This document shows positions 30,431 through 42,957 of a stretch of 64,000 nt of DNA, one piece after another; the stretch's first letter is position 1, and the number at the start of each line of letters is the position of its first letter. The notes under the pieces are model-generated. The model saw only the letters and a program-made list of their open reading frames with translations, was not told where the DNA came from and ran no database searches. Origin of the DNA: Treponema sp. Its GTDB lineage: Bacteria > Spirochaetota > Spirochaetia > Treponematales > Treponemataceae. The translations under genes and the position numbers were made by a program. The stretch is taken from assembly GCA_045641045.1 (NCBI GenBank), contig JAZUGE010000057.1:4259-68258 (forward strand). The letters run 5' to 3'.

Positions 30431-31063
30431 TTATTTAATTTCTTCTATAATAGATATAAAATCATTGATATTAGGACACCTTAACTCTATCGCTTTTTGA
30501 ATCATTTTATCACTCTCTGAAAAACGTCCGGCCATAGCATAGGCAACAGCAAGATTCGCAGGCACCATATAAAGATTACTGTTACAATTCAATGCTTTTT
30601 CAAGGTTTTCAACTGCAAGCTCTGCATTTTTTTGACCAATGTACAAAGCGCCGATACTAGCATATGCTTCTGCAAGAGTCGGATCCATAGCCACAGCTTT
30701 GTTGTAGTTTAAGAGTGCTTTTGTATCATCACCTAAAGCATGATAATTTACCCCCAAAGTCACATAGCCCCTGTAATCATCTCTGATATTAAGAGATTTT
30801 TCCTGATACTCAATAGCTTTAACAAGTTCTTCTTGAGCCATGTAGACATTTGCAATAAATGTATAAATAACTTCAGGACTGTAGTTTGTATCCTCGCTTA
30901 AAACTTTATCAAAAAGTTCAAGTGCCTTGTTAAAATCTTTGCTACCATATGCAGCCATTGCCTGCTGAACAGTATAGTCTCCAGGCTTTGAACAGCCTGT
31001 TAAGCAAAATAGTCCGCTACAGCAAACTAAAAGAATAATCAAAATAACTATTTGTTTTATCAT
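30431..31063 (-). CDS. TPR-repeat lipoprotein
   Basis: Lipobox LTGC; several TPR-like repeats (AEAYASIGALY...A...LEKAL). Confidence 0.8.
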   Translation of the reverse strand: MIKQIVILIILLVCCSGLFCLTGCSKPGDYTVQQAMAAYGSKDFNKALELFDKVLSEDTNYSPEVIYTFIANVYMAQEELVKAIEYQEKSLNIRDDYRGYVTLGVNYHALGDDTKALLNYNKAVAMDPTLAEAYASIGALYIGQKNAELAVENLEKALNCNSNLYMVPANLAVAYAMAGRFSESDKMIQKAIELRCPNINDFISIIEEIK

Positions 31064-31095: not shown

Positions 31096-31124
31096 TTGTA
31101 AATTTCTGAAACCAAATTTATAAT
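31096..31124 (+). promoter_or_regulatory. Sigma70-type promoter of the MinD-like/pseudoreceptor/cheD operon
   Basis: TTGTAA-N17-TATAAT, 14 nt before the ATG; no SD. Confidence 0.7.
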
Positions 31125-31138
31125 TATCTTAATAAATC

Positions 31139-32158
31139 ATGGTCAACATATTACCTATAGCAAGTGGGAAAGGTGGGGTAGGTAAAAGTTCCATTGCAGT
31201 CAATCTCGCCATAACTCTTGCCAGAAAGCAAAAAAAAGTTATTTTAGCTGACTTTGACCTTGGTGGAGCAAACCTTCACACTCTTTTAGGAATAAAAAAT
31301 AACCACGCCGGCATCGGAAATTTTGTTTATAAACAGACTCACAGTCTGTCGTCTCTTTTACAGCCTACTCAGGTACAAGGATTGTCCTTTATTGCTGGCG
31401 ACTGTCTGTATCCAGGCACTCCTAACATGGACTATTTTACAAAATGCAAGATTGTAAAAGAACTTAATACTCTTGATGCCGACTATATTATACTGGATTT
31501 AGGTGCAGGTACAACCTATAACACTCTTGATTTATTCTTATTAACTAAAAACTCCTTAATAGTGACAACACCTGAACTTACATCGATTCTTAATGCCTAT
31601 TCATTTTTGAAAGCCGCTGTTTTCAGATTTTTTTGCAGGCAGTTTACTTCAAAAAGTGATGAAAGAAAAACTATAGATGAATTCTTAAAGCTTAGCCCAA
31701 ACGGTAGCGAAGCAAGTTTTTCAGAACTAGTTCAATACATGACAAATCTGTTTCCTGAAACTGCCCCACAGGCAATGCAGATACTCAGAGATTTTAGACC
31801 ACAAGTCATTGTGAATATGGGTAAAACTTCAAATGACCTTGAAATGGCCAAACGACTGAGATCATTAGCTCAAAAAAAGTTAGATACTAACATAGATTTT
31901 ATTGGATTTTTGCCAAAGGATGATAAAATTAGTTTATCTGTAGCTAAACGAACTCCGTTATCCCTATGGGAACCTGACTGTGAGTTTGTAAAAGCCATTC
32001 AAACAGCTGCTGTACGTATAATGCAGCACACATACACTTGTGAACATGCAGATATGTTTACAAATAATGATGATAGGGATTTAACAGTTCTTACTGAAGA
32101 GTTTAACAATAATGCAATAGCTGTTCCTGCAGCTGCAGACAAAGGATTGAGTTTATGA
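31139..32158 (+). CDS. MinD/FlhG-like P-loop ATPase
   Basis: Deviant Walker A SGKGGVGKS, ADFDLGGANLH, LDLGAG, VTTPELTS. Confidence 0.88.
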   Translation: MVNILPIASGKGGVGKSSIAVNLAITLARKQKKVILADFDLGGANLHTLLGIKNNHAGIGNFVYKQTHSLSSLLQPTQVQGLSFIAGDCLYPGTPNMDYFTKCKIVKELNTLDADYIILDLGAGTTYNTLDLFLLTKNSLIVTTPELTSILNAYSFLKAAVFRFFCRQFTSKSDERKTIDEFLKLSPNGSEASFSELVQYMTNLFPETAPQAMQILRDFRPQVIVNMGKTSNDLEMAKRLRSLAQKKLDTNIDFIGFLPKDDKISLSVAKRTPLSLWEPDCEFVKAIQTAAVRIMQHTYTCEHADMFTNNDDRDLTVLTEEFNNNAIAVPAAADKGLSL

Positions 32159-33873
32159 ACATACAGGAAACGATAACGCAGATTAAAAAGATTAGCTCTA
32201 AAACTGAAGAGCTCTATTTGAAACTTGGAGAACAATTTCCGACTCTACTCACAAAGACAAGCAGCAAATCTTTGGATAACCTCAAAAACATGCTTGAGCA
32301 GCTCAAAGTATTAAACAATAACTCCAGCAAAAAAGAAGGTGCACTTTTTGACAGCTATGCTGAAAAGTATAACCCTCTATTTGAGCGCCTCAATATGAAA
32401 ATTGAGGATTTGTCTAAGCTTAACAACATGATTGTTGATATTAAGGAAGACAGTGAACAGATGGAGCTTATTGCTCTTAATGCAATGGTTATCTCTATTA
32501 AGTCTGGAGAAAAAGGACAGGCTTTCTCTCGTATCACTGAAAATCTTCAGAGACTTTCTAATGATATGTTTACATATTCAGACAAGCTTATTGAAGAAGA
32601 AAAGCTTCTTATTGACCATATTAATAATCTGAAAAGCATATTTTCTGGTATTATCCAAGCTCAAAAAGCTTTGTCGGACAAAGGTTCAAGCGGTAGCTCA
32701 AGTATTACAAGTTTTATCAACGGACTCGAGGATCCAATTACTGTATTGGAAGCTCACGTTGAGTCTATATATAAACCAATACAAAAGGCAATGGAAGGCC
32801 TACAGCTTCAGGATATGATCAGGCAGGCAATTGAACATGTGGAAGCCTGTCTTGCTGAAATACATGAGGACCACACAAGCATCCCTGTCTGTGAGGAGGC
32901 CCTTGACTGTGTAACTTTTAATATTGAACTGTATCAGCTTGCTTCTGAAGTTTTAGATGATGTTAACAACTATGTAAAACAAAGCCTCGATATATTTAAC
33001 GAAAACTGGATGTCTGTAATTGATCTCCTTGACTCGATTGAAAACGAAAAAATGGATTTTGAGTCACGTTATCTCAATGATTTTAAGCCAACGGAAGAAA
33101 ACATCAAGCTTCAGATGTCAAAAATCATTTCAAGCTTTAAACACATGATAGACGGATTTAGTACATATCATTACGTACAAAAGGATCTTGTTCACGTTTG
33201 CCAGAACATTACAGAAAAAGCAAGAACTATGAATGCTGTATTTGAAAATCTTAGACCAGTAATGAGCCGTCTGCACCATGTTCGTATATTACAGCAGATT
33301 GAAGTTTCAAAAAATGATGCGATAAGCTCAGTTAGAGATTCTGTTACCGATATGGATAACCTTATTAACTCAGCAAACAATGACCTTGATGAGATGGAAG
33401 CACTCCTTGACTCATTTATAAGTGATACAGGCAGTATGATAAAAGAGTTTACAACATCAATTGCAGATGATAATGAAAAAATGGAACACATAAAATCTGA
33501 TAAGGATAAGTTTTTTGAGGAACTTAACATATGTAACAATAACCTGTCGGATATTATCAAAAGCTTTGATGTTTTTCCTGATGGATTTCAGTCTCGCTGC
33601 GTAACAGTTCAGCAGGCTTTGCAGGACTTGAGAGGAGTTGGAGATCAGCTTACAGAACTTAGCCTGCAGATGATTGAAGACAGCAAGTTTTACAAAACAA
33701 AAAAAGATGAGCTGCTTAAAGAGCGTGGTTTAACATCGTGGGAACTGCGAAACAATAAATTTGCTGATTTAATACAAAACTTTACAATCACTGCTCATAA
33801 AGAAGCTGCTGGTAAGATTGGTGGGTTTGAAATTGAAAAAGGTGCTGAAAGTGGAGATATAACCTTCTTTTAA
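32155..33873 (+). CDS. Soluble coiled-coil protein with degenerate chemoreceptor signalling domain(s)
   Basis: EQMELIALNAMVISIKSGEKGQAFSRITENLQRLS aligns to the MCP hairpin tip; no TM segment; ends in GDITFF. Confidence 0.65.
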   Translation: MNIQETITQIKKISSKTEELYLKLGEQFPTLLTKTSSKSLDNLKNMLEQLKVLNNNSSKKEGALFDSYAEKYNPLFERLNMKIEDLSKLNNMIVDIKEDSEQMELIALNAMVISIKSGEKGQAFSRITENLQRLSNDMFTYSDKLIEEEKLLIDHINNLKSIFSGIIQAQKALSDKGSSGSSSITSFINGLEDPITVLEAHVESIYKPIQKAMEGLQLQDMIRQAIEHVEACLAEIHEDHTSIPVCEEALDCVTFNIELYQLASEVLDDVNNYVKQSLDIFNENWMSVIDLLDSIENEKMDFESRYLNDFKPTEENIKLQMSKIISSFKHMIDGFSTYHYVQKDLVHVCQNITEKARTMNAVFENLRPVMSRLHHVRILQQIEVSKNDAISSVRDSVTDMDNLINSANNDLDEMEALLDSFISDTGSMIKEFTTSIADDNEKMEHIKSDKDKFFEELNICNNNLSDIIKSFDVFPDGFQSRCVTVQQALQDLRGVGDQLTELSLQMIEDSKFYKTKKDELLKERGLTSWELRNNKFADLIQNFTITAHKEAAGKIGGFEIEKGAESGDITFF

Positions 33874-34490
33874 TGAACCGCTATTTTGACTTACATTTTA
33901 ACAGTAATATTGTCACAATTTATCCCGGAGAGTTTTACTCAAGTAAGGGAGAAGAGCTTATTTCCACTATTTTAGGCAGTTGTATAAGTATTACTCTATA
34001 TGACCCTAAAAGCAGGATAGGTGGTATGAACCATTTTATGCTTGCCCGTAACAACAAAGTTGGTGTAGAAACAGGAAATACACTTATGGGTAGATTTGGA
34101 GAGTATGCCATGCAGCTTTTAATTGATGACTTAGTCTCAAAAGGTGCAAATCCGAAAAACTTCGAAGCAAAAGTTTTTGGCGGAAGTAACATATTTAATA
34201 TGCCCGAAAAAACAGGAGCTCAAGTTGGAGCAGTGAACATCGACTTTGCATTTGATTATTTGAACAATCACAGTATAAAAATTATCAACTCTGATACAGG
34301 CGGCATCAAGCCACGAAAAATTTTTTTTGATCCTGTCACATCAAAGGTTTTCTTAAAATATGTTGAGTCAAATGTAAAAGACCGTAATGCTCTTTTATCA
34401 AAAGAAGAAACCTACCTGCGCAATATTGTTGAGCTTGAAAAAAAAGCAGAACAGTATTTTCATTTTACAGGCGGCAAGCACAACTCCTAA
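33873..34490 (+). CDS. cheD: Chemoreceptor glutamine deamidase
   Basis: IYPGE, TILGSC (catalytic Cys), GGMNHFML, AKVFGG, DTGG..PRKI.F. Confidence 0.93.
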   Translation: MNRYFDLHFNSNIVTIYPGEFYSSKGEELISTILGSCISITLYDPKSRIGGMNHFMLARNNKVGVETGNTLMGRFGEYAMQLLIDDLVSKGANPKNFEAKVFGGSNIFNMPEKTGAQVGAVNIDFAFDYLNNHSIKIINSDTGGIKPRKIFFDPVTSKVFLKYVESNVKDRNALLSKEETYLRNIVELEKKAEQYFHFTGGKHNS

Positions 34491-34653
34491 ACAGGTTTCT
34501 TATTTGTACCTCGTTTTTTGCTATATCCGTACTTATACAATGCAAAACATATTCTGCTTCGAGTAGTAGTTCTCTCTTTATTTCAAAAAAATGGCTCTAA
34601 TAATGTTAATAACACTATCAGAGCCTCTACCTTAGGATAAAAAAACTATCAAT

Positions 34654-35160
34654 TTATTCTTCTGACTCATCAGGAACCGCAGGTCCATGACGCTCAACAT
34701 CGCCTTCAATAAACTCAAGAATACTTCGTAAATCAAGAACAAGGATAAACTGATCTCCTTTGCGAGACACAGACGTAACAAAGTTTTTCTGTTCTTCAGG
34801 AATACCATAATTTGCACTACCTGCCTGTATCATCTTTAGGCTACTGACAACATCAACACTGTCTGCTATTATGCCAAGTTCAAGAGGTTTTTCACCTTCC
34901 TGAGGTACTTCCATAACAATGACTGATGTTGTACTTAAATCTTCAGACGGCTTAAAACCAAAAAGCACACGAAGATCAATAACAGATACAACAGAACCAC
35001 GAACATTCATTACACCTTTTAAATATGAAAGTGAATTTGGAACAGGAGTAAGTTCGGTAAACTCAAAAACTTCTTTTACATAAGATACTGGAACAGAAAA
35101 AATACCTGTACTGAGATTAAATGTAAAAAACGAATTCTCATCCTTATTGTTGATTTCCAT
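34654..35160 (-). CDS. cheW: Chemotaxis coupling protein CheW
   Basis: VKEV....LTPVPNS..YLKGVMNVRGSVVSVIDLR, GIIADSV. Start moved to ATG 35160, after a GGGAG SD. Confidence 0.93.
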   Translation of the reverse strand: MEINNKDENSFFTFNLSTGIFSVPVSYVKEVFEFTELTPVPNSLSYLKGVMNVRGSVVSVIDLRVLFGFKPSEDLSTTSVIVMEVPQEGEKPLELGIIADSVDVVSSLKMIQAGSANYGIPEEQKNFVTSVSRKGDQFILVLDLRSILEFIEGDVERHGPAVPDESEE

Positions 35161-35309
35161 ATACATTCTCCCCAATTTATCGTTAATGTTATTTTAATAA
35201 ACAAATCCAGCTAGTGGTTATAATTATTTATTATAAATAAATTTAAATAAACATTTAAGTAAAGTTCTAGTTTATAATTTTAACAAGCTAAAAGCGGGAG
35301 AGTTTTATA

Positions 35310-35624
35310 ATGGCTGAAAAAAAAGTAAGTACTGAGACAATTGTTTGGAAAGGTACAGCAGGTATTGAACAGGCTCACATTTTAAAAGATAGTCTTTTGG
35401 CAGCTTTTGAAAAAGCAGATTCAGTACAGCTCGATATTTCGTCTCTTGAGGATATTGATATTACTGGTATCCAGATAATTCTTGCAGCAAAAAAAGAGGC
35501 CACTAAACTAAACAAAAGTTTTTGTCTTACAGGTGTGATTCCACAACCAATTCTGGAGTTTACAGAAGCAAACAGCATTCACTTTGATGCCCTGCTTAAT
35601 AATAGTATTAAGGAGGCCAAATAA
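35310..35624 (+). CDS. STAS-domain protein
   Basis: LDISSLEDIDITGIQII pattern; TAATG overlap with cheA. Confidence 0.85.
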   Translation: MAEKKVSTETIVWKGTAGIEQAHILKDSLLAAFEKADSVQLDISSLEDIDITGIQIILAAKKEATKLNKSFCLTGVIPQPILEFTEANSIHFDALLNNSIKEAK

Positions 35625-37696
35625 TGCTTGAACAGTTAAATTCAGTATTTTTTGAAGAAGCAAACGAGCTTTTAGACAATCTTGAAGAACAGCTTTTAAC
35701 TTTGGAAGAACATCCTGATGATACAGAAACCATCAGTGCAGTATTTAGGGCAATGCATACAATAAAAGGCTCATCTGCGATGTTTGGCTTCAATGATATA
35801 TCATCCTTTACACACGAAGCTGAATCTGCGATGGATCAGGTACGAAATGGATTTGTACCAGTAAAGCACGAATTAATTGATTTACTCCTTAAAGCAAGAG
35901 ACCACATACACGCTCTTTTAGATGCAGGTTCTGAAATTCCGCCAGATCTTAACGCAGCATCACAAGAGCTTATAAATGCATTTATTGAATATGTTGTTGC
36001 AAATGGTGGTAATTCATCAAAAGGCTCAGCTCCTGCAGCACAGACTCAAGCATCCGTATCCTCTCAAAAAGAAGAAACCTGGCGTATTAAGTTCAGACCT
36101 TCTAATACAATCATGCAAAACGGAACAAGACCAGAACTTTTGGTAAAAGAACTTACCGAGATGGGAAAAGCAACTGTAGTTCCATTCTATACTGACTTAC
36201 CATCTCTTTCCGAAATGGACAGTGAGCTCTGTTATTTTGCATGGGACATCATATTAACTACAAATAAAAGCGAAAATGACATTAATGATGTATTTATCTT
36301 TTTGGACAGTGAGTCGCATATATCTGTTGAAAAAATCGATATAGATCCGTCTTCTCAAACAAAAATTGGCGAAATTCTTGTTAACCGAAATGATATTACA
36401 AAAGAAGAACTTGATAAAATTATCAACGAACACAAGCAGTTGGGGCAGATTCTTGTCGAAAAAAAGATTGTTTCACAGCAGCAAGTTACTTCGGCTCTTG
36501 CAGAGCAAAAACATATTAAATCAGTACAACCTGCCGAAGAATCTTCAATACGCGTAAGCTCAAAAAAACTTGATCAGCTTTTAGATCTTGTAGGAGAACT
36601 TGTAACCTTTAATGCTCGTCTTGACCAGCTTGCAATACGAAACAATATGGTTGCTTTAAAAAACTTGAGCGAAAACTGTGGACGACTTGTAGTTATGCTT
36701 CGTGATACATCAATGGATATGCGCATGGTTCCTATCGGAACATTGTTCACAAGATTTCGCAGAACAGTTCGTGACTTAGGTCAGCAACTGGGAAAAGATA
36801 TCGAAATGGAAACTGAGGGCTCTGAAACTGAAATGGATAAAAACGTCATTGAAAAGCTCAATGATCCATTGCTGCACCTTATCCGCAATTCAGTTGATCA
36901 TGGAGTTGAGTCTCCTGTAGAACGTAAGGCAGCTGGCAAACCAGAGCAAGGGCGTGTAGTTTTATCTGCAAAACACTCCGGAGCCTTTGTAATGATATCA
37001 ATTATTGATGACGGACAAGGCCTTGATAAGGAAGCCATACGACAGAAAGGTATCGAAAGAAGTCTTATCACTGCGGACCAACAGTTAACAGACAATGAAA
37101 TATACAACCTTATCTTTTTACCAGGTTTTTCGACATCAAAACAGGTAACTTCGGTAAGTGGACGAGGTGTTGGTCTTGATGTTGTAAAAAAGGATATTGC
37201 AACTCTTGGCGGTTCAGTAGAAATTGAAACCGAAAAAGGTAAGGGAACTACCTTCATACTAAAGATTCCTTTAACACTGGCAATTATTGATGGAATGCTT
37301 GTTTCAGTAGGTTCTGTAAAATATATCATACCTCTGAACACAATAAACGAGTGTCTCTCATTTAAACAGACTGTTACATCAGACAGCAGAATGTTTCCAA
37401 AGGCAGACTCTCATGGCAAAGATGTTCCTAGTCTTTATTTGAGATCATTCTTCCATATACATGATCCTTTACCACAAAGACAGGAAGTTGTAACTATACT
37501 TGATCAAAAATCATTAACAGGAATTGTTGTTGATAAGATTCTGGGTAATCAGCAGATTGTAATAAAACCACTAAGTAAACTGTACAAAAACTGTACGGGT
37601 ATCAATGGTGCTGCTGTTCTAGGGGATGGATCTGTTGCATTAATTCTTGATGTGCTTAAGCTTACTGAACTTATTCACATTCATGAAAAGGGATGA
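35624..37696 (+). CDS. cheA: Chemotaxis histidine kinase CheA
   Basis: Hpt AMHTIKG, SIRVSSKKLDQLLDLVGEL, HLIRNSVDHG, DDGQG, GFST, GRGVGLDVV, C-terminal CheW domain. Confidence 0.96.
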   Translation: MLEQLNSVFFEEANELLDNLEEQLLTLEEHPDDTETISAVFRAMHTIKGSSAMFGFNDISSFTHEAESAMDQVRNGFVPVKHELIDLLLKARDHIHALLDAGSEIPPDLNAASQELINAFIEYVVANGGNSSKGSAPAAQTQASVSSQKEETWRIKFRPSNTIMQNGTRPELLVKELTEMGKATVVPFYTDLPSLSEMDSELCYFAWDIILTTNKSENDINDVFIFLDSESHISVEKIDIDPSSQTKIGEILVNRNDITKEELDKIINEHKQLGQILVEKKIVSQQQVTSALAEQKHIKSVQPAEESSIRVSSKKLDQLLDLVGELVTFNARLDQLAIRNNMVALKNLSENCGRLVVMLRDTSMDMRMVPIGTLFTRFRRTVRDLGQQLGKDIEMETEGSETEMDKNVIEKLNDPLLHLIRNSVDHGVESPVERKAAGKPEQGRVVLSAKHSGAFVMISIIDDGQGLDKEAIRQKGIERSLITADQQLTDNEIYNLIFLPGFSTSKQVTSVSGRGVGLDVVKKDIATLGGSVEIETEKGKGTTFILKIPLTLAIIDGMLVSVGSVKYIIPLNTINECLSFKQTVTSDSRMFPKADSHGKDVPSLYLRSFFHIHDPLPQRQEVVTILDQKSLTGIVVDKILGNQQIVIKPLSKLYKNCTGINGAAVLGDGSVALILDVLKLTELIHIHEKG

Positions 37697-38583
37697 TGAT
37701 GGAACAGACAAACGACAAAAGTGCCGTGAATACCTTTGGAGTTTTAAAACCTACAGAGATATCCAATGAGCAGTTTCAATCAATTGCAAAGTTTATAGAG
37801 ACAAATGTTGGTATAAAGATGCCTGACTCAAAAAAACTTATGGTGCAGTCGCGTCTTTATAATCGACTTAAAAGTCTTAACATGAAAAACTTTGAACAAT
37901 ACATCAGTTATGTTTTTTCAAACACTCCTGATGCCCAGGAAGAAATAGCATTAATGATAAATGCTATTACGACAAACCTGACTCATTTTTTTAGAGAAAG
38001 CCAGCACTTTGATTATATGACACAGGTTGTGCTACCTGAATTGACAAACAAAGGTATCCCAAAAGTCGAACTGTGGTCTGCCGGGTGTTCTAGTGGAGAA
38101 GAACCTTATACTTTATCTATTGTTATGCAGGAGTTTATATCAAAAAATACCGGTGCAATAAAGGATTACAGAATATATGCCACAGATATATCGTCGAGGG
38201 TTTTAGGAATTGCCACTAATGCAGTTTATACCATGGAAAGTATAAAAGATTTGGATTTTAACATTAAGAAAAAATACTTTCTAAAGAGTAAAAATCCAGC
38301 AGAGCAAAAAGTTAGAGTTAATAAGGATACTCGTTTAAAAGTAACATTTAACCGACTGAATTTTATGGATTCTGTATACCCGGTAGATACACAGAAACAT
38401 ATCATTTTTTGCCGGAATGTGTTGATTTATTTTGATAAACCAACACAGGAAGCTGTAATACGCAAGCTCGTACACAATCTTGTTCCAGGAGGTTATTTAT
38501 TTTTAGGACATTCAGAAACTATATTTGGCATGGATCTCCCGTTGGAAAATGTGGGACCAACTATTTTTAAGAAGACAGAGTAG
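37693..38583 (+). CDS. cheR: Chemotaxis methyltransferase CheR
   Basis: TTNLTHFFRE, WSAGCSSGEEPY, ATDIS, IFCRNVLIYF, LGHSE. Confidence 0.96.
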   Translation: MMMEQTNDKSAVNTFGVLKPTEISNEQFQSIAKFIETNVGIKMPDSKKLMVQSRLYNRLKSLNMKNFEQYISYVFSNTPDAQEEIALMINAITTNLTHFFRESQHFDYMTQVVLPELTNKGIPKVELWSAGCSSGEEPYTLSIVMQEFISKNTGAIKDYRIYATDISSRVLGIATNAVYTMESIKDLDFNIKKKYFLKSKNPAEQKVRVNKDTRLKVTFNRLNFMDSVYPVDTQKHIIFCRNVLIYFDKPTQEAVIRKLVHNLVPGGYLFLGHSETIFGMDLPLENVGPTIFKKTE

Positions 38584-38595
38584 TCGGGAGAAGTT

Positions 38596-39843
38596 ATGAT
38601 AAAAGTACTAATTATTGATGATTCGGCTTTAGTCCGGCAAACCCTCACAGAAGTTTTACATAATGACTCAGAAATACAGGTCATTGGAACTGCTTCAGAT
38701 CCAATAGTAGGTGTTCATAAAATTCAAAATGAACGACCTGATGTAATTATTCTGGATATCGAAATGGCGAGAATGGATGGTCTTACATTTCTTCGGAAAA
38801 TGAATGAAACTGTAGACCCTATTCCTTGTGTTGTATGCTCATCTCTTGTCGAAAAAGGTTCCCCTGAGTCAATAAAAGCATATGAGTATGGAGCTGCCGA
38901 AGTAATATTAAAGCCGTCCTTTGGGACTAAAAGATTCATCGAAGAATCTTCTATATTAATCGGTGATGCAATCAGATCTGCCTATAGCACGACAGGAAAG
39001 ATAAAACAGCTTATACCATCCCAGGCAGAGTTACACTCATCTGGCTTTGACAGTAATAAACCTGTACAAAAAACAAACGTTGCAGCAAGTAAAAAAACTG
39101 CGACTCCAGTACAGGCAAGACCTGCATCTTCAGCACAAGTTATACCAAAACAAAAGACAGCAAGAGAACCTTTACCGGAGAACGGACGTAGAATTCAACC
39201 AAAGTTATCTGCCGATGTTATACTCGAAAAACCAAATCCTGCCTTGGCTCCAACGGATATTACACCTCCTGTTGTAGTAGTAGGAGCAAGTACAGGTGGT
39301 ACAGAGGCTTTAAAAGATTTTCTTACAATGCTTCCTCCAGATTCGCCACCTTTAGTAATTGTTCAGCACATGCCTGAACATTTTACAGCAGCCTTTGCAC
39401 AGCGCCTTGACGGAATTTGTAAAATTCACGTAAAAGAAGCTCAAAACGGAGATAGAGTTTTAAAAGGACAGGCATTAATTGCTCCTGGAAATTATCACTG
39501 TCTTTTAAAGCGAGATGGTAAAGAATACTACGTTGAAGTAAAGGAGGGACCTTTAGTTTCACGACACAGGCCATCAGTAGATGTATTGTTCAGATCTGCA
39601 GCTCGTTATGCCGGCAAAAATGCCATAGGTGTTATCATGACTGGTATGGGTGATGACGGAGCAAAGGGTATGAGGGAGATGCATGATTCTGGAGCTTATA
39701 ACATAGCCCAGAATGAAGCAACTTGTATTGTATATGGTATGCCATGCGAAGCTGTAAAGGCTGGTGGTGTAGATAAAATTGTGCCTCTGCAGGAAATAGC
39801 ACAAAATATTCTTGCAGCAGCAAAGCAAAAATCTGTCAGATAA
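38596..39843 (+). CDS. cheB: Chemotaxis methylesterase CheB (REC + long linker + esterase)
   Basis: REC LDIEM; [18 protein letters not shown] and MTGMGDDG catalytic motifs. Confidence 0.96.
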
Positions 39844-39879: not shown

Positions 39880-40248
39880 ATGTCTGATAAAAAAATCCTA
39901 GCAGTAGATGACTCAAACTCAATAAGAAAAAGTATATCCTTCATTTTAGGACAAGAAGGATATCAAATTACAGAAGCAGAAGATGGTGTTGATGCTCTCG
40001 CAAAAGCAAAAGCAGATAAGTTTAATCTTGTAATTACTGATATCAACATGCCAAACATGGATGGTATAGAGCTTACTAGACAACTTAGAGCTACAGACGG
40101 CTACAAGTTTACACCTATCATAGCACTTACAACTGAAAACCAGCAGTCTAAAATGGATGAAGGTAAAGCAGCTGGTGCTACAGGCTGGATTGTAAAACCA
40201 TTTACTGCAGAAAAACTTATTGCAGTTGTAAAGAAAATCATAGGATAG
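39880..40248 (+). CDS. cheY: Single-domain response regulator CheY
   Basis: [26 protein letters not shown]. Confidence 0.92.
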
Positions 40249-40276: not shown

Positions 40277-42475
40277 ATGAAAAGTATTCGTTCGGCAATA
40301 ACTCTGTTTATTGCAATGCTAATAATTGTTATTAGTTCTGCGTTAGTAGGTATATCTCTATATTTTTCAGGGGCCGCTGTAAAAACTACAGCATATACAA
40401 ACATGACGACTCTTGTAAAAAACATATCTAGCTATGCAGACGCTAAAATACAGGGAGACGTATTAACATTAAAAGCAGTTGCAACGAGAGAAGAATTGAA
40501 AAATGAGTCCATCTCTATTGAAAAACGAGTACGAAACATACACGCCCTTACAAAAGAAATTGATGATGCCAGATACTTTTTGCTTGTAGATATGGACGGC
40601 AACGGGTTCAACTCAGAAGGTAAATCCGTAAACATTTCTGACCGCGAGTATTTCAAAAAAGCAAAAGCTGGTATTCCATCTATTGAAGGTCCAATCATAA
40701 GTAAACTCCTCAATACAGCTGCAACTCTTGTAGCGGTTCCTGTTTATAATGAAATCGGAGTGATTAATGGAGTTCTCGCTCTTAACAAGGGAACAAAACT
40801 CCTTAGTGACATTACCAAGCAAATTGAGATTGGGGAAACAGGTGGTTCATTTATTATAAACAAGGAAACAGGTATTATCCTTGCAACAAACACAACAGTC
40901 GAGGATGGTATTGAAAACAGCTTTGAAAATATGGCAATCAGTGACCCTGCTTTTGAAGGCCTTGCAAAGCTTAGTGTAACAATGCGTGAAAATCAATCAG
41001 GTATCATGGAATTAATGGATCGTGGATCAAAATGTTTTGCAGCTTATTCAGACATCCAGGGAACTAATTGGTCAATTGCGATTACTGTTGAAGCAAGAGA
41101 GTTTATGTATGTTTTAAATCAGATGGTTGGCATTTTAGTAATAATAACTATCATCTGTATGTTACTCGCTGTTTTAGCCGGACGACTTTATGCAAAGACC
41201 CTGGCCGCCCCTATCGGTATGATAAAAGATTCTCTCCTCTTGATTTCAAAGGGTGACTTGAGGGTAAATAATGCAAGCGAAAAAGATATACGCAAACTAC
41301 ATAAGCGAAAAGATGAACTTGGACAAATGGGCTTAGCACTTAATAATATGCTTATGGCTCTTTTAAAAACTGTTTCACAGGTTCGTGAGTCTGCCATGAC
41401 AGTAAGAGCTGGTGGAGAACAATTAAGTTCATCAAGTCAGTCAGTATCATCTGGAGCAAGTAAGCAGGCTGCTTCTACAGAAGAAATGAGTGCAACTATG
41501 GAAGAAATGACCAGCAATATCAGGCAAAATGCTGATAATGCTGCCCGTACAAGTGATATAGCTCATAATGCCGCTTCAAACAGTGAGCATGGAGCTGAAG
41601 CCGTACGCGAAGCTGTTGATGCAGTAAAGACTATTGCTGAAAAAATCTCTATAATTCAAGATATTGCAGGACAGACAAACATGCTTGCATTAAACGCGGC
41701 TATTGAAGCTGCCAGAGCAGGAGAAGCAGGTAAAGGTTTTGCAGTAGTTGCCAGCGAGGTTCGAAAGCTTGCAGAACGAAGCCAGAGTGCTGCAGCTGAA
41801 ATAAAAGAATTGTCTGCTAAAACGCTCATAACAGCTGAAACTGCAGGCAAAACCATTGATAGTGTCATTCCGGATATTGAACAGACATCTAATCTCATAC
41901 AAGATATTGCTACAGCTTCTCGAGAGCAGGATAATGGTGCAACACAGGTAAGTGCAGCTATTGTACAGATGGATGGTGTTGTCCAGCAAAATGCTAGTGC
42001 TGCAGAACAAATGGCAGCTATGGCTGAAGAACTTTCGGCAGAAGCAACAAAACTTGTTACTGCAATAGACTTCTTCAAAACACCAGAAAAAATTATAACA
42101 GATTTTGCTGCTATATCAGAAAATACTGAGAAAAAGCAGCAAAAGAAAGATGATAAAACAGTCTCGACAAAGACTGCAGATAAAACGAAAAAAGACTCTG
42201 GTAAATCTGATAACAGTGATAAAAAAACTGTTAGACAAAAGCCAGACAATAAGCCTCTGGTAGAAAAAAAGGATAAAAACTCAGTCAGTAAGCAAACATC
42301 TGAACAGAAAACTGCAGAAGAGACAAAAACAGCACCTGAAAAGCTACCTGAAGAGAAAGATATACAAAAGCAGCCTAAAGACAACAATAATGCTGTTAGT
42401 GATAAGCCTGTATCTGGAACAATAACAAAAACTACAGCAGATCTTATCAGTGACTCTGATTTCGAGGAATTTTAG
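40277..42475 (+). CDS. Methyl-accepting chemotaxis protein (dCache sensor, HAMP) with C-terminal DFEEF pentapeptide
   Basis: Two TM helices, SDREYF Cache motif, [37 protein letters not shown], terminal SDFEEF. Confidence 0.95.
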
Positions 42476-42504
42476 TGTATATCGCAATTAATGGAGTATA
42501 GATT

Positions 42505-42957
42505 ATGAGCGAAAATGTTTTAACTTTTACCATTGATAACAACCATTATGGTGTAAATGTAAATTCCGTTATTGAAGTCCTTGATTTTTCAACTCCAACA
42601 GCAGTACCTTGTGCAGAGCCATATATCGAGGGGCTGATATACTCTAGAGAGCAAGGTATTACAGTTGTGAACCTAAAGAAGCGATTTGGTTTATCAGATG
42701 AAGCTTCAACAGATAAAAACAAAATTATTGTCGTTGAAATTCCATCTCCAACAGAAGAAGACGAAAATAACATTACACTATACGGACTTGTTGCTGACAG
42801 CGTACAGGATGTTATCACGATTGATAAGCAGGAGCTAAAATGCGAAGCTACAGCTCCAATACCAGATACATTTATCGAAATTGTATACAAATACAATGAT
42901 GAAACCGTGTTTAATCTGGAACTATCACAACTTTTTGTTAATACAGAGACACTTTAA
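42505..42957 (+). CDS. cheW: Chemotaxis coupling protein CheW
   Basis: LTFTID..HYGV....VIEV, AVPCAEPYIEGLI, VVNLKKRF, GLVADSV. Confidence 0.85.
   Translation: MSENVLTFTIDNNHYGVNVNSVIEVLDFSTPTAVPCAEPYIEGLIYSREQGITVVNLKKRFGLSDEASTDKNKIIVVEIPSPTEEDENNITLYGLVADSVQDVITIDKQELKCEATAPIPDTFIEIVYKYNDETVFNLELSQLFVNTETL

Follow-up and report, generated by a model that had tools for sequence, protein, structure and literature searches.

Very long spirochaete cells place chemosensory arrays at both ends and hand them down at division, and a locus in Treponema sp. raises the question of whether a dedicated ATPase takes part. The locus lies in a stretch of 64,000 nucleotides (nt), here called the window (GenBank assembly GCA_045641045.1, contig JAZUGE010000057.1, positions 4,259 to 68,258; contig C57 in our numbering), from a genome of 2.83 Mb that is 99.6% complete. 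Three consecutive plus-strand genes at the edge of a chemotaxis (che) gene cluster encode an ATPase of 339 amino acids (aa; 31139..32158), a soluble receptor-like protein of 572 aa (32155..33873) and CheD (205 aa; 33873..34490). The original prediction suggested that the ATPase might position or scaffold arrays together with the 572-aa protein, and that the trio would be an undescribed module. The novelty holds for the ATPase, for which no describing paper was found in the literature searched. It does not hold for the 572-aa "pseudoreceptor", which is a distant member of the BB0569 family, characterised in Borrelia burgdorferi.

Across the order Treponematales, the genomes that carry the gene for this ATPase form a strict subset of those with the BB0569-like gene and the CheA1-type cluster, and in the family Treponemataceae the ATPase gene has been relocated directly upstream of the BB0569-like gene. 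Nested distribution, relocation to an apparently co-transcribed position, and adjacency that survives rearrangement are together what one would expect to see for an accessory factor and the cargo it serves. Because of this pattern, and of close precedents in other bacteria, we favour a model in which a dimer of the ATPase engages the array-embedded BB0569-like protein and controls where and how many arrays form, and we put its probability at about 0.5.

Co-occurrence of the ATPase and the BB0569-like gene

Co-occurrence was scored in 301 Treponematales genomes. The ATPase was counted as present at a best E value below about 1e-64, checked against a phylogenetic tree, and the borderline genome G463 (9e-62) was included on account of its short reading frame (352 aa). 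A full-length BB0569-family gene was found in 103 of the 301 genomes and a full-length CheA1-type CheA in 97, all but one of which (96) also have the BB0569-family gene. Both the ATPase and the BB0569-like gene are present in 87 genomes, the BB0569-like gene alone in 16, the ATPase alone in none, and neither in 198; the corresponding counts by genus are 30, 7, 0, and 61. Fisher's test, which ignores phylogeny, gives p = 1e-59 by genome and p = 7e-19 by genus. The two genes are unlinked in about 60 of the 87 genomes, and one deletion therefore cannot explain their joint absence. In families f3, f4, and f6 the two are unlinked and some congeners have lost both; congeners without either gene occur in g12 and g161. 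Borrelia carries both as well, in the form of BB0569 and an ATPase orthologue of 323 aa. In-frame stops interrupt the ATPase or the BB0569-like gene in several Treponemataceae genomes (G506, G518, G418, G454, and G475), and may reflect either decay of the module or sequencing error.

Together with the precedent of PpfA and TlpT discussed below, the nested pattern supports a functional link between the ATPase and the BB0569-like protein.

Gene neighbourhoods across spirochaetes

Genes for ParA/MinD-family ATPases usually adjoin the genes for their cargo (PMC10241942). In Treponemataceae, the ATPase gene adjoins the BB0569-like gene in 30 of 30 sampled genomes that have both, from at least eight genera (7 genomes of a first sample and 24 of an order-level sample, with G000 counted once), and the same arrangement is found in Treponema brennaborense and Treponema saccharophilum. 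That the three genes form a conserved unit was thus rightly anticipated, in that they are tightly linked on the same strand in relatives. The spacing varies, from -44 to +113 nt between the ATPase and BB0569-like genes and from -1 to +19 nt between the latter and cheD, so it is the tight linkage that is conserved and not the exact overlaps. In G013, G418, G495, and G527, cheA and its cluster are found on a different contig, and the ATPase gene still stands beside the BB0569-like gene and cheD. In this same subclade (with G013 examined at locus L043), the ATPase gene is inverted and convergent with the other two. In a further genome (G019), cheD has moved away, and the ATPase and BB0569-like genes are still found beside cheW, the STAS gene and cheA.

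Across Treponematales, the BB0569-like gene has cheD as its conserved partner downstream. In seven genomes from five other families (f2, f3, f4, f6, and f11), the two stand as an isolated pair far from any cheA, and this pair is the oldest linkage of the trio. An ATPase encoded in a che cluster beside a candidate array-integrating partner is found in Treponemataceae and not outside the family. A scan of contigs with an alignment of the ATPase, in which the patterns amounted to generic P-loop motifs, gave mostly unrelated MinD/FlhG genes among the matches listed.

Several observations weigh against a role of the ATPase in array placement. Outside Treponemataceae, its gene is not adjacent to che genes in any genome checked, Borrelia included. 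An ATPase gene usually unlinked from che genes in relatives had been named in the original prediction among the grounds for giving up the idea, and on this point the survey came out divided: the gene does stand apart outside the family, while linkage is complete in the sampled Treponemataceae genomes that have both genes and co-occurrence holds in Treponematales. In families f3 and f6 (loci L050-L055), its neighbours are a divergent gene for a PEGA/FlgD-Ig-domain protein of 520-600 aa upstream and a glycoside hydrolase family 3 (GH3, NagZ-like) gene downstream, and in f4, f11, and an Alkalispirochaeta the gene for TsaD adjoins it. The 323-aa Borrelia orthologue, which from its position we take to be BB0726, is encoded between trkH/trkA and pfk, about 180 kb from BB0569. 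Sixteen Treponematales genomes, some of them complete, keep the BB0569-like gene without the ATPase, as do whole families elsewhere in the phylum, and the reverse is seen in f10 and in f13, f27, and f35, which form a deep branch of the ATPase clade. Because co-occurrence breaks down outside Spirochaetia, the claim of dependency is limited to Treponematales and Borrelia. Even there the co-occurrence lacks phylogenetic independence, and it fits the whole CheA1-type system equally well, so the direct partner of the ATPase need not be the 572-aa protein. The proteins themselves add two further points, namely that analysis of the ATPase tail revealed no recognisable membrane-targeting helix, and that the alignment of the 572-aa protein lacks a conserved basic N-terminal peptide of the ParB/MinE/TlpT type.

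Much of this would be expected if the ATPase had a different cargo, for example the pole or the division site of the cell, the remodelling of peptidoglycan, or a complex in the envelope. The adjacency in Treponemataceae would then be a lineage-specific rearrangement that implies no mechanistic link of a direct kind, and the co-occurrence would reflect shared descent and joint loss in reduced genomes. The conserved non-che neighbours and the genomes with only one of the two genes speak for such an explanation. However, not one of the 87 Treponematales genomes with the ATPase lacks the BB0569-like gene, even though most of these pairs are unlinked and congeners have lost both, and the adjacency in Treponemataceae survived an inversion by which the trio was parted from cheA. 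Furthermore, a universal 385-aa paralogue of the ATPase, described below, is a better candidate for a housekeeping function. Another cargo is a serious possibility that we nonetheless judge unlikely.

The ATPase

The ATPase scores above the cutoffs of the Pfam families ParA (75.8 bits) and CbiA (58.4 bits). In an alignment of 44 sequences, the P-loop S9-G-K11-G-G-V-G-K16-S and residues D38, D40, D115, and D120 are invariant, corresponding to the deviant Walker A motif with its signature lysine and to the A'/B aspartates. These features place the protein in the ParA/MinD (deviant Walker A) superfamily, as had been proposed, and judging from the alignment its ATP-binding and dimerisation motifs are intact.

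The closer kinship with the ParA-type positioners ParC and PpfA that the original prediction implied could not be upheld. Among proteins of solved structure, FlhG is matched with an E value of 8e-24, whereas Soj/ParA proteins reach only 3e-7 to 4e-6 and align over the first 60-95 residues, and the NCBIfam model ParA_partition matches residues 5-42 only. A predicted structure (mean predicted local distance difference test score, pLDDT, 88) superimposes on 4RZ3 (FlhG; TM-score 0.89), 5J1J (0.90), and 1HYQ (0.85). In both sequence and fold, FlhG/FleN (YlxH) and MinD are therefore its nearest relatives of solved structure, and they share with the ATPase the deviant Walker A motif and signature lysine. 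It is not a MinD in the strict sense, since the MinD model TIGR01968 yields 78.2 bits against a cutoff of 212.9 and covers the N-terminal half only.

FlhG and FleN are defined by an N-terminal segment that activates FlhF and a C-terminal amphipathic helix that targets the membrane. The ATPase has neither: only 8 residues precede its P-loop, and its tail helix (residues 310-326) is acidic (pI 4.2), with the conserved pattern D-L-x-x-L-x-x-E-F. It also differs from FlhG in a three-helix insertion of about 50 residues, at about residues 167-217, and its gene does not lie beside flhF; the true FlhG is a separate gene of 287 aa directly downstream of flhF on contig C44. The same genome also encodes Mrp/ApbC, a Soj-like ParA, and the 385-aa paralogue of the ATPase. 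A maximum-likelihood tree unites the che-linked genes, the unlinked genes of other Treponematales families and the 323-aa Borrelia gene in a "short" clade (support 94/92), apart from the groups of the universal "long" 385-aa paralogue. By these sequence comparisons, the ATPase is a member of a spirochaete-specific FlhG/MinD-like orphan family, and it falls outside the ParA/Soj clade to which ParC and PpfA belong. No functional paper on the Borrelia 323-aa orthologue was found in the literature searched.

The universal paralogue of about 385 aa is encoded on contig C38 (5497-6615), between the genes for a CtpA-type S41 protease and lgt. It features the same three-helix insertion, followed by a C-terminal coiled-coil extension, and has orthologues in nearly all Spirochaetia, that of Borrelia lying at about 371 kb.

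The closest solved relatives, FlhG and FleN, act largely by partner switching, on FliM/FliY and FleQ/FlrA (PMC11407121), and the ATPase could likewise be an ATP-dependent partner switch, either gating the assembly or activity of a BB0569-CheD-CheA1 complex or linking its output to the flagellar motor or to gene expression. A protein in which no membrane-targeting sequence or obvious matrix-binding element was found would suit such a role, and the conserved acidic C-terminal helix resembles a protein-docking element. However, the genome already has a bona fide FlhG in its usual place behind flhF, and no gene for a transcription factor or motor component is linked to the ATPase gene. We consider a partner switch decidedly unlikely, while recognising that it is inseparable from positioning by sequence alone.

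The 572-aa protein

As originally suggested, the 572-aa protein is soluble and resembles a chemoreceptor. Its score against the Pfam family MCPsignal (23.3 bits) falls under the gathering score of 34.6, and no Pfam sensor, transmembrane or HAMP domain was found in it. The tip of the signalling hairpin found in methyl-accepting chemotaxis proteins (MCPs) can be recognised at residues 99-135, where the canonical residues N109, G118, G121, F124, and I127 are kept. Within this region, 'EQMELIALNAMVISIKSGEKGQAFSRITENLQRLS' aligns with the tip of Thermotoga maritima Tm14 (3G67, E 3e-6), a soluble receptor and the best solved relative of the protein. The predicted tip is intact and of the kind through which MCPs bind CheA/CheW. 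The methylation consensus [ASTG][ASTG]xx[EQ][EQ]xx[ASTG][ASTG] is absent from the 572-aa protein, also in a loosened form, and a search for a consensus CheD site likewise gave nothing.

Assignment to the BB0569 family rests on homology and on the published operon context in Borrelia. NCBIfam model NF052273, built for BB0569, gives 42.1 bits, far below its equivalog cutoff of 1000, but the match is collinear and nearly full-length (residues 22-550 against model positions 33-567). The Borrelia protein itself scores 1155.8 bits and a homologue from f11 is intermediate (139 bits). Identity to BB0569 is about 17-22%. Homologues from Treponematales, Borrelia, and other spirochaete families were aligned, and a profile from 20 of these sequences, Borrelia included, recovers the Borrelia proteins at 1e-126 to 1e-147; N109, G118, G121, I127, D220, Q224, I382, E383, and F572 are invariant among them. 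The 572-aa protein thus shares with BB0569 its full-length collinear homology, the same invariant residues, the same C-terminal motif and a location in a STAS-CheA1-type cluster. The Borrelia operon was found to read cheW-STAS-cheA-cheB-BB0569-cheY, in agreement with the published cheW2-bb0566-cheA1-cheB2-bb0569-cheY2 (PMC10703414), and the cheA/STAS cluster of the window is homologous to it. BB0569 differs in its location, which in Borrelia is between cheB2 and cheY2; cheD and the ATPase gene are not among its neighbours. At locus L080:7890 of Borrelia, one base is shared by the cheB2 stop and the BB0569 start, so BB0569 too is translationally coupled to its upstream gene.

An AlphaFold2 model (pLDDT 84) is all-helical, with a disordered tail and two long hairpins that turn at G118 and N387. 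A Foldseek search of this model against the Protein Data Bank (PDB) returned only generic long coiled coils (SMC, Rad50, and PrgA) with TM-scores below 0.25. The second hairpin was considered as a degenerate copy of the MCP tip and rejected, as hhalign comparisons of the N- and C-terminal halves and of hairpins 1 and 2 gave probabilities of only 10-18% with the tips unaligned; an internal duplication is a matter of visual resemblance only.

Two features recall the phosphatase CheZ, in which a peptide that binds CheY lies C-terminal to the active helix. D220 and Q224 form a DxxxQ motif that is invariant in 51 sequences from Treponema, Borrelia, and other spirochaete families, located on a long helix of the helical bundle, and the disordered linker ends in a conserved acidic-hydrophobic peptide, G[DE][IV]T[FL]F (residues 562-572), in Treponema, Borrelia, and other spirochaete families. 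The layout could equally recall a pentapeptide-like tether for CheR or CheB. With a cluster that has no cheX, the 572-aa protein might chiefly be a CheZ-like phosphatase of phosphorylated CheY (CheY-P) that uses a receptor-like fold as its scaffold. In that case the trio would serve signal termination and adaptation, as a module of phosphatase and CheD with the ATPase controlling its activity or location, an arrangement that can coexist with the other explanations. However, no Pfam CheZ match was obtained at E < 0.01, and the conserved polar stripe around the motif (M213, Q217, D220, Q224, and H228) may just as well form a polar layer that is buried or a site where CheD docks. In addition, the BB0569 mutant, in the work of Zhang et al. 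from 2016, reportedly runs constantly, as is seen when kinase output rather than phosphatase activity is lost. A primary phosphatase function is, in our view, very unlikely.

Organization of the trio and the che cluster

The sequence features that had been taken to join the three genes are present. The ATG at 32155-32157 overlaps the TGA at 32156-32158 (ATGA) between the ATPase and 572-aa genes, and the TAA at 33871-33873 overlaps the ATG at 33873-33875 (TAATG) between the 572-aa gene and cheD. Start/stop overlaps are the commonest junctions in operons and unremarkable alone. A single promoter-like site, TTGTAA-17 nt-TATAAT (31096..31124, plus strand; 10 of 12 matches), ends about 15 nt before the ATG of the ATPase gene, implying a very short leader. 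Promoter-like matches as such are no commoner than in shuffled sequence (20 found against 22.2 expected). The predicted promoter gains some weight because its boxes keep their position in orthologous upstream regions: a TTGnAA...TATAaT pair stands at an equal distance from the ATG in four of eight such regions, and a TATACT box in two more. The trio thus appears to be an operon belonging to an accessory (CheA1-type) chemosensory system in Treponema. No clear plus-strand terminator for it emerged from terminator calling. A divergent gene for a TPR lipoprotein (30431-31063) was rejected as part of the module, since it lies upstream in only some relatives and is absent in T. brennaborense.

CheD, the only one in the genome, matches PF03975 with 91.2 bits against a cutoff of 25. 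It carries a GSC motif (C37) and an NH motif (H54), which we take to be the catalytic Cys and His by analogy with CheD of T. maritima. The genome has about 30 MCP-like genes to this single CheD.

As the original prediction stated, the trio stands at the edge of the che cluster. A cheW gene (173 aa; 34654..35175, minus strand) is convergent with the trio and divergent from the STAS and cheA genes, and a 15-bp hairpin with a T-run (34593..34625, minus strand) serves as its terminator. The rest of this CheA1-type accessory cluster follows on the plus strand with genes for STAS (35310-35624), cheA (35624-37696), cheR (37693-38583), cheB (38596-39843), and cheY (39880-40248). It ends with genes for a dCache-HAMP MCP (732 aa) and a second CheW (150 aa), at 40277..42957. 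Residues 247-295 of this CheA, between a P2-like region and the dimerisation domain, match NCBIfam NF053729, an MshE-related domain that binds cyclic di-GMP (42.7 bits, cutoff 38). The genome has three cheA genes, the other two being on contig C69 with cheW and on contig C52 with cheR and cheB.

Comparison with known systems and a proposed mechanism

The closest precedent is the PpfA-TlpT system of Rhodobacter sphaeroides cheOp3. There, ppfA is encoded beside tlpT, TlpT is needed to form its cluster, and its N-terminus is considered a likely activator of PpfA (PMC3964821). The Treponema locus repeats this arrangement, a precedent that the original prediction cited: in both, an accessory che cluster has the gene for an ATPase of the ParA/MinD superfamily just upstream of a gene for a receptor-like protein of about 570 aa without transmembrane segments (PMC3964821). 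A survey of 206 species found ppfA-like genes among the che operons of 37% (PMC2829493). Despite these similarities, PpfA is a nucleoid-binding protein of the ParA/Soj type, whereas the Treponema ATPase is nearest to FlhG/FleN/MinD (8e-24, against 3e-7 for Soj) and has a three-helix insertion. TlpT is a classical coiled-coil MCP, while the 572-aa protein is BB0569-like and without the conserved basic N-terminal peptide. The Treponema arrays may or may not be cytoplasmic.

In Vibrio, polar placement of arrays and their inheritance by daughter cells are brought about by a che-encoded ATPase, ParC, working through an array-integrating adaptor, ParP (PMC5706961, PMC11407121). The Treponema ATPase resembles ParC in being a member of the ParA/MinD superfamily encoded in a che cluster. 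The two systems differ in that ParC is ParA-like and ParP integrates into arrays through a CheW-like domain, in place of the MCP-like tip of the candidate Treponema adaptor. We know of no HubP-like landmark in spirochaetes. MinD4 of Haloferax volcanii, which belongs to the MinD clade and not to the ParA clade, is said to govern the placement of chemosensory arrays and the motility machinery. It resembles the Treponema ATPase in its clade, but it is archaeal and its gene has no receptor-like partner beside it; the comparison was made at the level of the superfamily. MinD4 is listed in Table 1 of PMC11407121.

BB0569 itself has been described as an atypical MCP that is polar and essential for chemotaxis (PMC10703414, PMC5318424). 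In Borrelia, a CheA1-GFP fusion is seen first at one pole, then at mid-cell and then as evenly spaced puncta, a behaviour that the authors liken to that of ParB, proposing a test against Par proteins (PMC10703414). The favoured model of array control by the ATPase joins these observations to the Treponema locus. The intact MCP tip of its first hairpin would let the pseudoreceptor insert into CheA/CheW arrays, in keeping with the reported need for BB0569 in array clustering (Zhang and colleagues, 2016). The ATP-bound dimer of the ATPase would bind the BB0569-like protein, and its ATP cycle would set where and how many BB0569-containing arrays assemble, including the supply of arrays to new poles or daughter cells of long cells. 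This would parallel PpfA/TlpT and ParC/ParP with a motor of the MinD/FlhG clade and a matrix that may be the membrane, the nucleoid, or a pole landmark. Array positioning by the ATPase is plausible on this comparison.

A broader proposal is more tentative, and we regard it as possible without leaning towards it. Spirochaetia may have an array-placement system of their own, composed of an ATPase of the FlhG/MinD clade (the 339-aa protein in Treponema and the 323-aa one in Borrelia) and an array-embedded adaptor of the BB0569 family, which would imitate a receptor dimer with the two hairpins of a single chain and also carry a CheZ-like DxxxQ site.

Implications

That ATPases of the ParA/MinD family are encoded in che clusters was already known. 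What is new here is the ATPase clade, which is FlhG/MinD-like and specific to spirochaetes, the partner family (BB0569), and the phylum. The array-positioning ATPases known so far, ParC and PpfA, are ParA-type and proteobacterial; if the Treponema ATPase works with the BB0569-type protein, it would represent an independently recruited solution to array positioning, and it would give a function to a widespread treponeme "P-loop NTPase". For the Lyme disease agent, it would name a concrete candidate partner for BB0569 and the CheA1 system, in an organism for which genetics, GFP fusions and cryo-electron tomography exist, turning an open question into a one-gene experiment. A two-part system of this kind, if real, would explain the ParB-like progression of Borrelia CheA1 puncta from pole to mid-cell to even spacing, as well as the means by which very long cells supply arrays to both poles and to new ones.

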